IMG/VR virus record: IMGVR_UViG_2706796753_000001
Coordinates: 1-64,000 of that record
Source: a virus
Lineage: Duplodnaviria; Caudoviricetes
Strand: one strand, 5' to 3'
DNA: 64,000 nt
Made by a program: the position numbers and the translations under genes. Of this stretch, positions 3,021 through 30,112 are shown piece by piece. How positions within the stretch are numbered: the stretch's first letter is position 1; every line of letters begins with the position of its first letter. The notes beneath the pieces were generated by a model. The model worked only from the letters and a program-made list of their open reading frames with translations. It did no database searches and was not told where the DNA came from.

Positions 3021-3360
3021 GTTTTTCCTCCTATGATAATAAGTGATGAACGGTCATATATGTACTGGATGCTAATGCTCCTAATAGTAATACAGTAAGG
3101 ATTGCGAATTTCAGTGTATCTTCTTTAGATGCCTTCTCTGCTTTGTTCCAATAGTATTCACACACGACTGCTATGATAATGGTAAGTATGCACCAGAATA
3201 AACCCACCTACTGTTCCTCCGCTTCATCTAGTAATATATGTAATGCCTTTTTCTTAAAGTCCTCGATAGGCATATTCTTCATGAAGAAGTGTCCTCCGTA
3301 GTCTCCTTTAATAACGACTGTCTTTTTATCTTCTGATAGGAACATCATAACTGACATATA

Positions 3361-4086
3361 TTATCGCTCCTCTTTCATCTTATTTATCTTCTTATATAGA
3401 TATGACGTATGGGCTTCTGATACATCAGGGAACGTTATTGTATAGTATAAGGATTTATCTTCTTTGATTTCTTTATGTGTATGTATATCAAAGATTGCTG
3501 TTCGCTCTTCAATTACACCTTTATCTCCTATAGGAGCTGCTGAGTATGCTTCTTCAATGATACCTAAAATTTTATATGTTTCTGTTTTCTCTCCATATGT
3601 ATCTCTATCGGGATAGTACAATTTAGCTACACGCGTGTCTCCTACGATTGGGAAGTTCTGATATCGGTCTCTTAGGGCTGATAAGTACTCATGTTTTACT
3701 AATACTGTATCAGGTTGTCCATCTATCATTAAATCACGTGAGTATACCGCATCTGACATATAAGATATAAGCCGCATTGTAGCCATCGATACTGTTATGT
3801 ATCTATTCTCAATACCTATTCTTGGTTCATGTTTAGCTTGGAATGTATGCTCATCCTCGTCTACATGGAACACTTCAAACTCTAGGTACTGACTAAACGA
3901 TGTAGGTTTGTGATATAACGGTAAGTATACCTTGTCTCCACACTCTACTGGAGAGATAACTACCTCATGTACATAGTTCACTGTCTTCACTCCTACGCAC
4001 TTCTGTAGTTCCACTTTCTCTTCTTTCTCTTCTTTCTCTTCTTTCTGGTTTGTTAGTAGTTCTTTTAACTTTTGAATGACACTCAT
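3361..4086 (-). CDS. Hypothetical protein, paralogue of 4286-4915
   Basis: 241-aa ORF with SD; shared C-terminal YK(I/V)LG...AYSAA...TAI.DI block. Confidence 0.8.
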   Translation of the reverse strand: MSVIQKLKELLTNQKEEKEEKEEKVELQKCVGVKTVNYVHEVVISPVECGDKVYLPLYHKPTSFSQYLEFEVFHVDEDEHTFQAKHEPRIGIENRYITVSMATMRLISYMSDAVYSRDLMIDGQPDTVLVKHEYLSALRDRYQNFPIVGDTRVAKLYYPDRDTYGEKTETYKILGIIEEAYSAAPIGDKGVIEERTAIFDIHTHKEIKEDKSLYYTITFPDVSEAHTSYLYKKINKMKEER

Positions 4087-4098
4087 TCTCTCTCCTCC

Positions 4099-4293
4099 TT
4101 ATTTCATCCATGAATCATCGTCATAATATTTACAAGTCTCTGCTTTACTGAAATCTTTTATTTCTGCATCACAGTTAATATTTTCGCATATGTTTAACCA
4201 AACAACCTCTTCCTCTGTAGATAGTCTCCTATTTACATATGTTTTACTATAACCGCAATCTCCACAGTTTTTCATAATACCTTCCTTACTCAA
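4099..4293 (-). CDS. Small Cys-rich hypothetical protein
   Basis: CxxC and CxxxxC motifs. Confidence 0.65.
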   Translation of the reverse strand: MSKEGIMKNCGDCGYSKTYVNRRLSTEEEVVWLNICENINCDAEIKDFSKAETCKYYDDDSWMK

Positions 4294-25960: not shown

Positions 25961-26466
25961 TTAAACTACTGCTGCTCCTGTTGCATCTACCCACCCGTTG
26001 GTATCCTTGTTTCTCCAGATAGGTTTATTCAAAGTTGTATCGAAAAACGGCTGCCTACATAAGTACCAGTTGTTGGACGTTGTGCTGTTGTTCCTGACGT
26101 AATCAATGGTACTGATACCTTACCTGTCGCATCAGGGTTAACGCCGTTTACTGTTTGAACAAACCCAGTAACCTTACCATTCCCATCAGGTGTCGCGCCG
26201 TTAATCTGTTTAATGAAACCAGACGTACTAGGAATTGTAATTGTTACGTTCCCTGCTGCATCTGCTGCTTTACCGTTAACAGACTTAACCATACCCTTAA
26301 CATCGTCCTTTGTAGCGAAGTCTCCCGTAGGAGCTCCATCTACACTAACATTACCGTTGATATCAGGGGCTTTACCATTAACAGTTTTAACCGTCTTCGT
26401 TAAACCTTCTTCAACGTCTCTCATCCTTTTTTCGGGAGAACCGTCATACATTCCATCTCTTAACAT
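25961..26466 (-). CDS. Late protein with (V/I)xx(V/I)NG repeats; apparent frameshift near 26054
   Basis: VKTVNGKAPD, VKSVNGKAAD, IKQINGATPD and VQTVNGVNPD repeats; -1 frame gives QPFFDTTLNKPIW...WVDATG. Confidence 0.75.
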
Positions 26467-26501
26467 GAATATAATACCCTCCTTCTTCTATTGTCCTAGA
26501 C

Positions 26502-26511
26502 TAATATAGCA
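26502..26511 (-). promoter_or_regulatory. Late promoter for repeat protein and endolysin
   Basis: TGCTATATTA, matching the Herelleviridae late motif TGTTATATTA. Confidence 0.7.
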
Positions 26512-26512
26512 C

Positions 26513-28309
26513 TTACCATCCTTTGGCAAATATATCAGGTTTGTCAGTTCGCATTACATTTACTGTCGTATAATCGAATGCGTTCTCTACTTCTTTCTTG
26601 ATATAAGGCTCTAGTACGTGCTCCATACCAACCATAGAGTATACAGAAGACTGAGCAAAATGGTCGTCACCTTTTGCCATGATAATTTGATAGATTGCTT
26701 TCGTTTTCTCATCTTCCTCATCTCGAATTACGACGTTTTGCCAATGTTCTAGATAAAGTTTTAGTTCTCTATCATCAACTTGGTAGAATCCTAAGCGCCC
26801 CATTTTCATATCAGAAATATGACGTTTGTTTTGTGTTAACTTGTCCACTGTAACCATACAACGTTGCTCAGACCACACAGGACTGATTTGACCTGTAGAA
26901 CGAGGGTTTGGGTTAACTTTAACTCCGTACGCTACACCTTCACCGAAATGCTGGATTAGCTTGTCTACGTAGTTACCAGAGTCACCGATATCCGCACAGA
27001 TAATATCTGGTTGGTATGGGATTAGTTCTACAATAATTCTTTCTAAGTCCGCTTCGATATTTGATACACCGCGAGCACGTTCTACTGAGAACATACGAAT
27101 CATGTCAATACGACCGTCATCACGGAATCCACGAATTGTTACCCAGTGGAAGTTACCCCAGTCAATCCCAACAGAAATGAATCGGTAGTCACTACGATTA
27201 AATAGTGGCTTTTCTAGGTACTCTCGTTTATTCTTTTCGATGTCGTCTGGTTGTACAGCTAACGCTACGTCTTGGTACGGGAATCCTAAAACGTAGTTAT
27301 AGAAGTGCTGTTTAGACTCTGCTTCTAATTCTTTTCGTTTTAAGGCATCTGCCGTTAACCACACGGCATTTAGCTGTGTAATCATATATCCACGTTTACC
27401 TTGGTTGTTTAACGTTCTGTCAGGGTATTTAGCTACCCATTCACCGTTATACCATCTATCTAATGTTTTCTTACATTTTTGGCAGATGAATCGGTATGTA
27501 CCATCTTTAACTGTTTTAGCTAAAGTATCAACGCCACTCTCATCCATACACTCGATGTTCAAATCATAATCGATTTGCTGTCTGTAACCGCAATGGTCAC
27601 ATTTATGCATGTATACGCGTTGGTCTGATTCAGTGAAAATTTTATGTATTCCGAACGCAGGTACTGTTGGAGTTGACCATCTTCGTAAAATCTTAAATTT
27701 AGATGATGACATAGATTCCATCGCTGACATCTCTGCGGAAGAGTTTACACGGTCGTACTCATCCATTGAAAGGTAATCGATATCGACACCCTCTACTGCT
27801 GACGCTTTAGAAGAAGAACGGAACAGCATGAAGCTATTACGAATACGTTTCTTTTCTAACGAGTCTACATGCGGGTCAGAAATAGTAGAATAGTAACCAG
27901 CACCTAGTAACGGGTTAATACGTGTGGATACGAAGTCTTTCATTTGTCGGTTTGTCGGGAATGTGTATAAACATTTAACCCCTGCGTAACTATGTAAATC
28001 TGCGAAGTGGAGCATTTCTCCTACCCCAACCTCTGATAATCCTAACTGACGTGACTTAATAACGCATTTATCTGGATGTGTATCGTTGATAATGTCTACC
28101 TGCCACGGTCTGTGTGCTAATGCTCGTGTAACGTCTCTACCGCTAACGTGGAACGTAATCGGGTGACCTTTTACCGAGTGATTTTTTAATAGATACGAAG
28201 AGCAGTTAATCATAGTAAGGACATACGCTAACTCTTCTTTCGATAAGTCGGTACGACCAAACGTCTGCTTCGCTACTCGCTGTATCATTTCTCCTGTAAT
28301 ATTATACAT
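26513..28309 (-). CDS. terL: Terminase large subunit
   Basis: RPWQ Q-motif, KSRQLGLSE Walker A, LSMDEYD Walker B, WSTPT coupling motif, GIDWG nuclease and DDHFAQS. Confidence 0.95.
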   Translation of the reverse strand: MYNITGEMIQRVAKQTFGRTDLSKEELAYVLTMINCSSYLLKNHSVKGHPITFHVSGRDVTRALAHRPWQVDIINDTHPDKCVIKSRQLGLSEVGVGEMLHFADLHSYAGVKCLYTFPTNRQMKDFVSTRINPLLGAGYYSTISDPHVDSLEKKRIRNSFMLFRSSSKASAVEGVDIDYLSMDEYDRVNSSAEMSAMESMSSSKFKILRRWSTPTVPAFGIHKIFTESDQRVYMHKCDHCGYRQQIDYDLNIECMDESGVDTLAKTVKDGTYRFICQKCKKTLDRWYNGEWVAKYPDRTLNNQGKRGYMITQLNAVWLTADALKRKELEAESKQHFYNYVLGFPYQDVALAVQPDDIEKNKREYLEKPLFNRSDYRFISVGIDWGNFHWVTIRGFRDDGRIDMIRMFSVERARGVSNIEADLERIIVELIPYQPDIICADIGDSGNYVDKLIQHFGEGVAYGVKVNPNPRSTGQISPVWSEQRCMVTVDKLTQNKRHISDMKMGRLGFYQVDDRELKLYLEHWQNVVIRDEEDEKTKAIYQIIMAKGDDHFAQSSVYSMVGMEHVLEPYIKKEVENAFDYTTVNVMRTDKPDIFAKGW

Positions 28310-28523
28310 TTCTATCTTCCTCTCCAGAATACGGGACAGCTAACAATGTATCTTTGTACACTAAGTCCCTGAGCTCACTATAGTGCTTTTTCTGTGCCAA
28401 TACATTATCAGGTGAGGGATAGGGCGCGTAAGAAAGCCCCATAGCTCTAGATTTTTTAACTGATTTGTATTGCGTTGTATCAGCGTCTCCAATGATATCA
28501 ATTTGCCAAGGTCTTTTCTCCAT
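28302..28523 (-). CDS. Small protein duplicating the TerL Q-motif/Walker A segment
   Basis: RPWQIDII...KKSRAMGLS versus TerL RPWQVDII...IKSRQLGLS; SD GAGGAG; overlaps both neighbours. Confidence 0.8.
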   Translation of the reverse strand: MEKRPWQIDIIGDADTTQYKSVKKSRAMGLSYAPYPSPDNVLAQKKHYSELRDLVYKDTLLAVPYSGEEDRNV

Positions 28524-28948
28524 TACATCGACTCCTCGTTTGCCCTATTTTGTGCGATATCCATTTCTGTGAGTAACTTAGCTAACTCTGCATCGCTAAT
28601 TCCACCGATATCGATACGACCTTCTTCTGTCTCACCAAGAGTACCTTCACGTACCATATCGTCAACAACCTTCTCTTGACGCATATTAATCTCTGGAAGC
28701 ATCCCAGCTCCTTGCTGACCGTTAATCATTTCATCGATACCATTTAACTCTTTATAAGCACTGAATACACGAATCGCATCAGCTACGTTATCAATTTTAA
28801 TTTCACCCATTTGCAGCTTCTGGATAAATTGGTTCATAGCTTCGGAAAATCCTAAGTTTAAATTCTGTCGTAGTTCTTCTTGTGCATCGAATACAGAACT
28901 TCTTTTCTGTACTCCTCGTTTGATGTTATCAACCATTGCCATCTGCAA
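28523..28948 (-). CDS. Probable terminase small subunit
   Basis: About 140-aa helical protein upstream of terL; call is positional inference. Confidence 0.55.
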   Translation of the reverse strand: MQMAMVDNIKRGVQKRSSVFDAQEELRQNLNLGFSEAMNQFIQKLQMGEIKIDNVADAIRVFSAYKELNGIDEMINGQQGAGMLPEINMRQEKVVDDMVREGTLGETEEGRIDIGGISDAELAKLLTEMDIAQNRANEESM

Positions 28949-29216
28949 GCTCTCCTTTCCTATCTAGTACTCTGTAACAAGAATTGATATCCTTACATAT
29001 GTGAACACTAACAAGTGCGCTCAACTCAAATCTGTACTGGTTTTGCGTTAATATGTACTTTTGTGTACGCTTTGTTAAAGTAGATAAAGGTCTGCCACAT
29101 ATCGAGCAAATCCTTGGATAGTTAACACGCTTGTCCCCTTTTTTAAACTCTTTATAATCTTGACAATTCTGGAACAGTCGTTTTCTTTTCTCTACTATTT
29201 CTTTCTTCGTAATCAT
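28929..29216 (-). CDS. Basic Zn-binding hypothetical protein
   Basis: CSIC...CKDINSC. Confidence 0.75.
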   Translation of the reverse strand: MITKKEIVEKRKRLFQNCQDYKEFKKGDKRVNYPRICSICGRPLSTLTKRTQKYILTQNQYRFELSALVSVHICKDINSCYRVLDRKGELADGNG

Positions 29217-29706
29217 TTTTCAGAATATTCCAACTTCTCATGATAGGCGTGTAGAACTTCTGATAGGAACATTTCGTATCCTTTTTCATTGTCGCAAAAT
29301 GCATTAGCGTACGCAAACGGTAATTCTAGAATCATCTCAGTAATCAAATTAGAAATCATAGTATCCGTATAGGGAATTCCATGTTGTACGAATTGACTTT
29401 TCAGATGGGACGAATATTTAGTATCTAGCATCTCTACAATCAACTCTTCAAAAGCTCCAACGTATTCATAATTGGCATCCTGATAATCTGCATACTCGTT
29501 AGCCAGTCGCAGCATCGATGTCGTGATTACTAATTTCGCTTCGTCTCTAACACTTTCATTAAATCTACGGTCTCGAAACTTAACCCCATGTACCTCAAAA
29601 ATTGGGGCAAGCTCTTTCGCATCTTCCTCGAACGTTTTAATTAAATTGATTTCCGCATATTCTTGTACTGCATCTAGCATTATATCTAACTCTTTCTCAT
29701 AAATCA
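29213..29706 (-). CDS. Hypothetical protein of the terminase operon
   Basis: Start MIYEKE behind SD AAGGAG. Confidence 0.75.
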
Positions 29707-29708
29707 TA

Positions 29709-29993
29709 TTAATCTCCTTTCTCCTTATGTCCCGCGACTGTATCATATCGTTTCAGTACGCAGTTTAAAATAAGACTGAACTCTTTCTGTACTTTCATCG
29801 CATTCTTTGTTACCACATAATCATATATCCCTAACGTGATTAAGGCGAAAACACCTCCCGTCACGAAATACGATACTGTTGAACTCTCTACTTCCACTCC
29901 TACAGAGCTAAGGTATTGTACTGCTTCATAACCTATCACCTGCGCTAAAAATATTAGTAGGAGCTTGTTCCTAGTATGTTTACTAATTACCAT
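29709..29993 (-). CDS. Two-TM membrane protein
   Basis: Two hydrophobic helices, SD GGAGG. Confidence 0.75.
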   Translation of the reverse strand: MVISKHTRNKLLLIFLAQVIGYEAVQYLSSVGVEVESSTVSYFVTGGVFALITLGIYDYVVTKNAMKVQKEFSLILNCVLKRYDTVAGHKEKGD

Positions 29994-30112
29994 TTTCCAA
30001 ATACCTCCATTGAGAAATATTTTTTATATCTCTAATATAGAGGTTTGTATAAAAACGATAGTAAGAAGTGCTATATTAGAAACGCAAAAAACTACGGAAG
30101 AGGGTAATTACT

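Follow-up and report, generated by a model that had tools for sequence, protein, structure and literature searches.

Among the proteins of tailed phages, the large terminase subunit (TerL) is the most highly conserved, and it is a main target of bacterial pattern-recognition immunity. In eukaryotes, microProteins (for example, Id and LITTLE ZIPPER), which are small, non-catalytic, and derived from the interaction or active-site segment of a larger protein, are thought to act as competitive binders. In the accessible part of PMC13581612, the sensors Avs1-3 are described as sensing TerL by direct binding, and in that of PMC11878797, group I introns are reported in 5 of 52 terL genes of Bastillevirinae, along with exon skipping in the TerL of SIOphi. 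Here, we describe a 73-codon gene, mini-TerL, located between the genes for the small (terS) and large (terL) terminase subunits in a 64,000-nucleotide stretch of viral DNA (positions 1 to 64,000 of the IMG/VR record IMGVR_UViG_2706796753_000001; hereafter, the window). Our analysis largely shows that mini-TerL is a domesticated fragment of terL. Over 2.9 kb around this gene, nucleotide identity is 98.7% with Bacillus phage Evoli and ~98% with Goe5, Bastille, Janet, and other phages; on this basis, the window is assigned to the Bastille-like myophages of the Bacillus cereus group (Herelleviridae, Bastillevirinae).

mini-TerL retains the ATP-site motifs of TerL

In a single BLASTP comparison, residues 1-31 of mini-TerL align with residues 64-92 of TerL (17 of 31 identical, E = 3e-7), and profile-profile comparison of 13 mini-TerL sequences with 20 TerL sequences using hhalign yields E = 6.5e-9 (probability 95.8%). 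A preliminary description of this locus had likened the 73-amino acid (aa) open reading frame (ORF) to the ATP-binding motifs of TerL, which it placed correctly at 28111-28034, and had noted that identical residues are mostly specified by different codons; both statements hold. At 17 of the 29 aligned codon positions, mini-TerL and TerL specify the same residue, with different codons at 11 and the same codon at 6; the nucleotide identity is 48 of 87. The window contains no other partial copy of TerL detectable with tblastn, the next match having E = 0.28. The copied part comprises the RPWQ motif, the strand that follows, and the P-loop (KSRQLGLS in TerL), and reads RPW[Q]-I-D-I ... V-K-K-S-R-A-M-G-L-S in mini-TerL; when TerL is compared with lambda gpA (hhalign E = 5e-4, probability 31%), KSRQLGLSE falls opposite KSARVGYSK.

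The residues M1, R4, P5, W6, I8, I10, V22, K24, S25, R26, A27, M28, G29, S31, V41, L42, and A43 are invariant in the alignment of 13 mini-TerL sequences, and the mini-TerL invariants correspond to the TerL invariants R67, P68, W69, K85, S86, R87, G90, L91, and S92. The stretch containing N75, D76, and H78, which are invariant in TerL, is replaced in mini-TerL by a variable, indel-rich linker. The Troll protein, which, like those of Goe5 and P0006, is outside the 13-sequence alignment, has AVGIS at the P-loop. All mini-TerL sequences share KKSRA[MV]G, whereas all 20 TerL sequences have IKSRQLG; this shared derived motif implies that the mini-TerL genes come from one old copy and have not been re-templated from terL. 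Ongoing gene conversion with terL was considered and is ruled out by the shared derived residues together with the different codons.

Five types, A to E, can be distinguished among the mini-TerL sequences (the window has type A), and P0006 represents a sixth, divergent one. A C-terminal segment of the form ...K.KE...[FY].N.VLG[VI]PY, present in types B, C, and E, aligns with TerL residues 321-345 (KRKE..KQHFYNYVLGFPY), and for three of the five types the similarity is significant in a shuffle test against the whole of TerL 93-598 (p = 0.001-0.006). This part of TerL aligns at ~340-365 of lambda gpA, just before the nuclease domain. Contiguous homology of the C-terminal part to TerL 93-140, hinted at by long alignments with the phrog_9315 profile, was tried and rejected (shuffle p = 0.13-0.97). 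The preliminary description included neither this second piece from TerL nor the patchy distribution as a cassette that is described below. Our results largely show that a copy of terL shrank to ~70 codons, with two pieces kept: RPW(Q)-strand-KSRxxGLS, that is, the adenine/Q motif with a lambda-gpA-type P-loop (TerL 64-93), and, in most alleles, the helix with the YNYVLGxPY segment with which the ATPase domain ends (TerL ~321-345).

Only TerL 64-93 and ~321-345 are represented in mini-TerL; the Walker B motif with the catalytic acid, the core sheet of the additional strand catalytic glutamate (ASCE) fold, and the nuclease domain are not. AlphaFold2 (AF2), run with the 13-sequence alignment, gives a mean predicted local distance difference test (pLDDT) score of 56.4, with residues 1-37 in coil, one helix at 38-58, and no sheet, so that mini-TerL alone is not predicted to fold. 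With no Walker B motif, no core sheet, and no predicted fold, the protein is therefore not an enzyme: it is neither an ATPase nor a terminase. No Pfam family matches it at E <= 1, and the gathering score of PF05876 is not reached. The AF2 model of TerL, with a mean pLDDT of 51 and values below 50 in the ATPase domain, was not good enough for placing the two segments on a structure and was left unused; no sequence relatives were found in the PDB at E <= 1.

The peptide is maintained by purifying selection

The loci examined, all with a TerL N-terminus, number 65 and comprise 57 from IMG/VR, 7 from phage records selected because they matched, and that of the window itself. Of these, 25 carry mini-TerL, 17 of them among the 57 IMG/VR loci, and in all 25 the ORF is intact, at 63-76 aa, with 17 distinct nucleotide sequences. 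The within-type ratios of non-synonymous to synonymous substitution rates (dN/dS; Nei-Gojobori method, NG86) are 0.15-0.25 for type A, 0.16 for B, 0.04-0.14 for C, and 0.06 for D, and this holds for both halves of the protein. When one independent pair per type is pooled (4 pairs), 55.7 synonymous changes at 156 sites are set against 34.3 non-synonymous changes at 585 sites, a pN/pS of ~0.16 (binomial p = 3e-17). Codons turn over at invariant positions: R26 is encoded by AGA, AGG, CGA, or CGT, S31 by TCT, TCG, TCA, AGC, or AGT, that is, by both serine codon families, and L42 by four codons. Judged by these substitution patterns, mini-TerL is a real gene whose peptide is under purifying selection, which has kept above all the RPW and KSRxxGLS motifs. 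This constraint is far weaker than that on TerL, for which dN/dS is 0-0.007 in the same genome pairs. The earlier proposal that selection acts on the peptide and that the gene is no recent duplicate is borne out by the dN/dS of 0.04-0.25, the pooled p value, the codon turnover, and the shared KKSRA[MV]G; the survey of relatives that it called for shows intact genes under purifying selection and no neutral decay.

Distribution, loss, and exchange of alleles

A tblastn search detected mini-TerL in 68 of 50,697 phage records, all from Bacillus phages, whereas relatives of TerL (E <= 1e-50) are present in 742 records, 92 of which are at least 80% identical to the TerL of the window; the counts include GenBank/RefSeq duplicates. 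Among 1.84 billion cluster representatives, five matched in a profile search: four 63-71-aa proteins of the mini-TerL family and an unrelated 884-aa repeat protein. A word-indexed protein search found only four relatives, and the ESM Atlas gave no usable match. In a quick IQ-TREE phylogeny of TerL with 51 rows, all 17 carriers belong to one clade of 21 rows (Shimodaira-Hasegawa-like approximate likelihood ratio test, 99) that encompasses Bastillevirus, Wphvirus, and Bequatrovirus (the Bastille, W.Ph., and B4 phages), and none of the 30 rows outside that clade carries the gene. At least three changes, such as a single gain with two losses, are needed to explain the presence and absence of mini-TerL on this tree. 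From the tree, from the derived KKSRA[MV]G common to all mini-TerL sequences, and from the small number of family members among the cluster representatives (four), mini-TerL appears to have arisen once, in the ancestor of this clade.

The indel that separates carriers from non-carriers is exact. Carriers contain ~213 nucleotides (nt) between the ATG that overlaps terS and the next ATG, ending in ...AATG; in phages lacking mini-TerL, a state that occurs naturally in those of the BigBertha/B4 type, terS and terL overlap directly as TAATG. The phage of locus L012, which lacks the gene, differs from the carriers L003 and L013 at 0 of 139 residues in TerS and 2 of 598 in TerL. If the tree is read as a single gain, such absence from close relatives would represent clean loss. 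Because near-identical phages lack mini-TerL, packaging does not need it, and its absence needs no compensation. By this genome comparison, mini-TerL is a dispensable accessory gene, and an essential role in the motor is excluded.

The gene is also an island of divergence. Troll and L013 differ at 17-22 positions per 100 nt in mini-TerL and at 0-3 across most of 4.6 kb of flanking sequence; the window differs from L008 at 11-12 positions per 100 nt, with other peaks of 7-10 elsewhere, and from Evoli at 6-8. Synonymous divergence in mini-TerL is 0.2-0.7, above that of the flanks, and the alleles are therefore older than their genomic backgrounds and are being exchanged among them. Types C, D, and E, which are ~45% identical, adjoin almost the same TerS within one clade of near-identical TerL. 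Type E combines an N-terminal part like that of A and D with a C-terminal part like that of C, and type D, an A-like N-terminal part with a different C-terminal part; the alleles thus recombine as two modules. Just downstream of terL, at 26029-26466 on the minus strand, a 145-aa ORF with four repeats of the V.(T/S)VNG..PD..GNV type marks a second peak of local divergence in the comparison of the window with L008.

Gene layout

On the minus strand, the genes follow one another in the overlapping order terS, mini-TerL, terL (Table 1). The preliminary description had reported a Shine-Dalgarno site and overlaps with both neighbors, and all three are in place: the GAGGAG site precedes the start codon by 8 nt, the ATG overlaps the terS stop codon as TAATG, and the last codons, AATGTATAA, contain the ATG of terL. 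In the RefSeq annotation of Evoli, terS starts two codons later. The GGAGAGG site upstream of terL is conserved in Troll and L013, again at the cassette's 3' end. The overlap with terL is 8 nt in the window and 25-41 nt in the Wphvirus types, where mini-TerL runs into terL in another frame and its last residues are overlap-encoded (L006, 1601-1641; L004, 2027-2051). A frameshift fusion of mini-TerL with TerL was considered and ruled out because the length of this overlap differs among allele types.

Table 1. Features of the terS-terL region of the window
Feature	Coordinates	Strand	Basis or remarks
mini-TerL gene	28302..28523	-	ATG, 73 codons, TAA stop
N module of mini-TerL, residues 4-31	28431..28514	-	Copy of the TerL Q-motif, first strand, and gpA-type P-loop
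C module of mini-TerL, residues 38-65	28329..28412	-	Predicted helix plus LLAVPY; homologous to the segment that matches TerL 321-345 in other alleles
GAGGAG, Shine-Dalgarno-like site	28532..28537	-	8 nt before the mini-TerL ATG, within the 3' end of terS
terS, small terminase subunit	28523..28948	-	phrog_1063, E = 3.5e-47
terL, gpA-type large terminase, 598 aa	26513..28309	-	Pfam GpA_ATPase, E = 3.6e-16, 60 bits (cut-off 25.6)
TerL residues 64-92, parent of the N module	28034..28120	-	Sequence comparison
TerL residues 321-345, parent of the C module	27275..27349	-	Alignments and shuffle test
GGAGAGG, Shine-Dalgarno-like site for terL	28319..28325	-	Carried within the mini-TerL cassette

Within 26300-30100, no terminator-like sites were found, and promoter-like sites are not in excess (8 found, 11.2 expected). 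Both this result and the gene overlaps are consistent with mini-TerL being made alongside TerL. Given its position, the gene should be co-translated with those for TerS and TerL, and the exact ATG-to-ATG fit of the cassette into the terS/terL overlap implies that translation should proceed in step with that of TerL.

Several other ORFs are found nearby. A 46-aa ORF with a TTG start lies inside mini-TerL in another frame (28361-28501, minus strand); it is present only in type A relatives, at variable length, and is probably not a gene. The start of terS is overlapped by a cysteine-containing 95-aa ORF (28929-29216, minus strand) with only weak matches to zinc fingers (zf_C2H2_13, E = 0.013; ROS_MUCR, E = 0.076), and a DUF7398 gene is located upstream of that ORF.

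Interrupted terL genes in related phages

In Goe5 (L002), terL is split at about residue 185 by an insert of ~1.1 kb (3055-4174) that contains a 262-aa ORF and probably corresponds to a group I intron carrying a homing endonuclease; interruptions at this site also occur in the IMG/VR loci L054, L058, L059, L067, and L071. In other relatives, terL is split at residues ~118-121, 183-185, 215, and 381-386. Locus L074 (1829-5691) encodes a 52%-identical TerL that is interrupted three times, at the W69 codon (RPW|Q), after P118, and at F343 (VLG|FPY). The W69 and F343 interruptions fall in the same motifs that mini-TerL retains, and the outer ends of its TerL-derived parts are within a few residues of these two sites; no observed insertion site coincides with the internal junction (93|321). 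This coincidence may reflect a preference of both the endonucleases and mini-TerL for the most conserved motifs. The Rfam search of 26000-30000 at E <= 1 found no introns, and the cassette contains no endonuclease ORF, only that of 73 codons; a link between mini-TerL and introns was rejected on the Rfam result.

Two further observations concern TerL itself. In L050, the TerL match changes frame at residue 98 (3290-3296) without an insert, the matches to 1-98 and 98-598 abutting; the change reflects either an error in sequencing or a genuine frameshift. In many Herelleviridae of Staphylococcus, Listeria, and Enterococcus, the TerL matches start at residue 70, 86, 108, 119, or 177, and the recurrence of these starts suggests splits or alternative starts across the family.

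Possible functions of mini-TerL

We propose that mini-TerL might mimic, as a linear peptide, the ATP-site motifs of TerL and so occupy a factor that engages those invariant residues; this factor would more likely be a party to a conflict (a protein of host defense or a rival mobile element) than a component of the phage motor. We lean toward conflict because accessory genes engaged with host defense or rival elements typically come and go without compensation, have old alleles shuffled among near-identical backgrounds, and recombine in modules. We give this reading a probability of roughly one in three. Several observations count against it. An internal role in packaging is equally compatible with where the gene lies, with the coupling of its translation, and with its descent from TerL. 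The motif residues are not absolute: the glutamine of the TerL motif (position Q7) varies among Q, H, and N, Goe5 has KYR in place of KSR, and the divergent P0006 protein has KSRSEQIS, with the glycine lost. The second piece is in part faint, its signal being degraded in type A of the window (shuffle p = 0.26) and its likeness to TerL 321-345 not seen in type D (p = 0.50), and the hhalign match of the C-terminal part to TerL 324-345, at E = 0.0055, has a probability of only 6.6%, indicating weak homology. The dN/dS is below 1 throughout, lacking the positive-selection signal of many arms-race genes, and mosaic recombination alone could produce the island of divergence.

We weigh almost equally a role in packaging itself, in which mini-TerL would bind the phage's own TerL, TerS, or portal and tune assembly or ATPase activity, or shield TerL monomers, being helpful yet non-essential. 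Such a modulator, for us a tentative possibility nearly as likely as the conflict mimic, would account for a low dN/dS in a gene that sits within the packaging operon, overlaps both terminase genes, and is separated from them by no promoter or terminator; furthermore, invariant residues that are exactly those of TerL would suit an equally invariant partner. It sits less well with close relatives that lack the gene and show no compensating change in TerS or TerL, with the very different alleles C, D, and E next to almost the same TerS and TerL, with which they do not co-vary, and with the absence of mini-TerL from all other Herelleviridae that have the same TerL (68 carrier records among 742 with a TerL match).

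The specific form of conflict suggested in the preliminary description, a decoy for the Avs-type signal transduction ATPase with numerous domains (STAND) sensors of the large terminase, is unlikely in our assessment. Direct sensing of TerL by Avs proteins, a peptide predicted to be made with TerL and carrying its ATP-site motifs, and an accessory, patchy distribution with allele turnover all speak for it. However, these sensors are described in the accessible text of PMC13581612 as enveloping the folded core of their target, and we disfavor the decoy because ~55 TerL-derived residues from two distant segments with no predicted fold (mean pLDDT as above) would not be expected to present such a folded surface. 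Moreover, no terminase decoy appears in the accessible text, where 'decoy' refers to target-decoy analysis in mass spectrometry.

It is still harder to regard mini-TerL as a relic of terL duplication or recombination that is kept as a translational-coupling spacer between terS and terL and encodes an inert peptide. The exact overlaps on both sides, the Shine-Dalgarno site of terL within the cassette, divergence that is fast compared with that of TerL, and dispensability would all be expected of a spacer; but a spacer needs only an open frame, whereas non-synonymous change is suppressed ~six-fold and the motifs are held through codon turnover, and phages lacking the gene couple terS to terL directly through TAATG. 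We consider it very unlikely, too, that mini-TerL is a by-product or passenger of introns or homing endonucleases, that is, a selfish cassette copied into genomes lacking it during repair. The repeated splitting of terL in relatives, including the three sites of L074, the proximity of the outer ends of the TerL-derived parts to two of these, and the group I introns that the available text of PMC11878797 reports in Bastillevirinae terL lend this idea some appeal, but the coincidence of sites is weak evidence given that both favor the most conserved motifs, the cassette contains neither an Rfam intron nor an endonuclease ORF, its 93|321 junction corresponds to none of the insertions observed, and selection on the peptide would not be expected. 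Least probable is that mini-TerL itself, as a minimal strand-P-loop-helix peptide, binds nucleotide or DNA: designed P-loop prototypes of ~50 aa reportedly bind nucleotides and nucleic acids, mini-TerL keeps K24, S25, R26, G29, and S31, and in types C, D, and E the loop runs straight into a helix-forming segment, but a proline-rich break follows it in types A and B, the loop residues are altered in Goe5 and P0006, and AF2 predicts coil for residues 1-37.

A gene that is clearly under selection yet dispensable, that keeps only the ATP-site motifs of TerL, that is predicted to be made with TerL, and that is swapped between near-identical phages offers a compact, genetically tractable handle on what exposed terminase motifs interact with and on whether phages use self-derived micro-proteins as mimics. 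More generally, tailed phages might repeatedly turn fragments of their own terminase into co-expressed linear mimics of the ATP site that blunt terminase-keyed immunity or rivals, with this Bacillus family as one instance; at present, we consider this generalization speculative and rather improbable.

Relation to known protein families

The mini-TerL family is already present in databases under an automatic label. The protein from the window matches phrog_4486 (E = 2.2e-33, residues 1-73 on profile positions 1-66 of 72), and a type D protein matches phrog_22344 over its full length (E = 2.4e-54); both belong to the same gene family as mini-TerL. These PHROG families are labeled only automatically, as 'terminase large subunit' or as unknown, and RefSeq assigns the name 'terminase large subunit' to mini-TerL in Evoli, Troll, Nemo, and Belinda, which is misleading for proteins of 63-76 aa. 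In the parts of main texts covered by our literature search, no description of the gene was found.

With the lambda-gpA-type terminases (PF05876), mini-TerL shares RPW(Q) and the deviant P-loop K-S-x-R-x-G-x-S; it differs from them in its length of 73 aa, compared with 598, in the absence of Walker B, core sheet, and nuclease domain, and in the non-conserved glutamine of the motif. It also resembles the exon-1 ORFs of intron-split terL genes, which likewise are short and contain the N-terminal motifs of TerL: the 130-aa profile phrog_9315, which represents such products, is matched at positions 65-92 or further (E = 2e-4 to 2e-6). However, exon-1 products are pieces of a spliced gene, whereas mini-TerL is an extra copy upstream of an uninterrupted terL, and its C-terminal part matches TerL 321-345 rather than 93-140. 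A parallel in kind exists with the microProtein competitors of eukaryotes, although these belong to a different domain of life: like them, mini-TerL is small, derives from a functional segment of a larger protein, and lacks the catalytic part, and by analogy, it would be a putative competitive binder.

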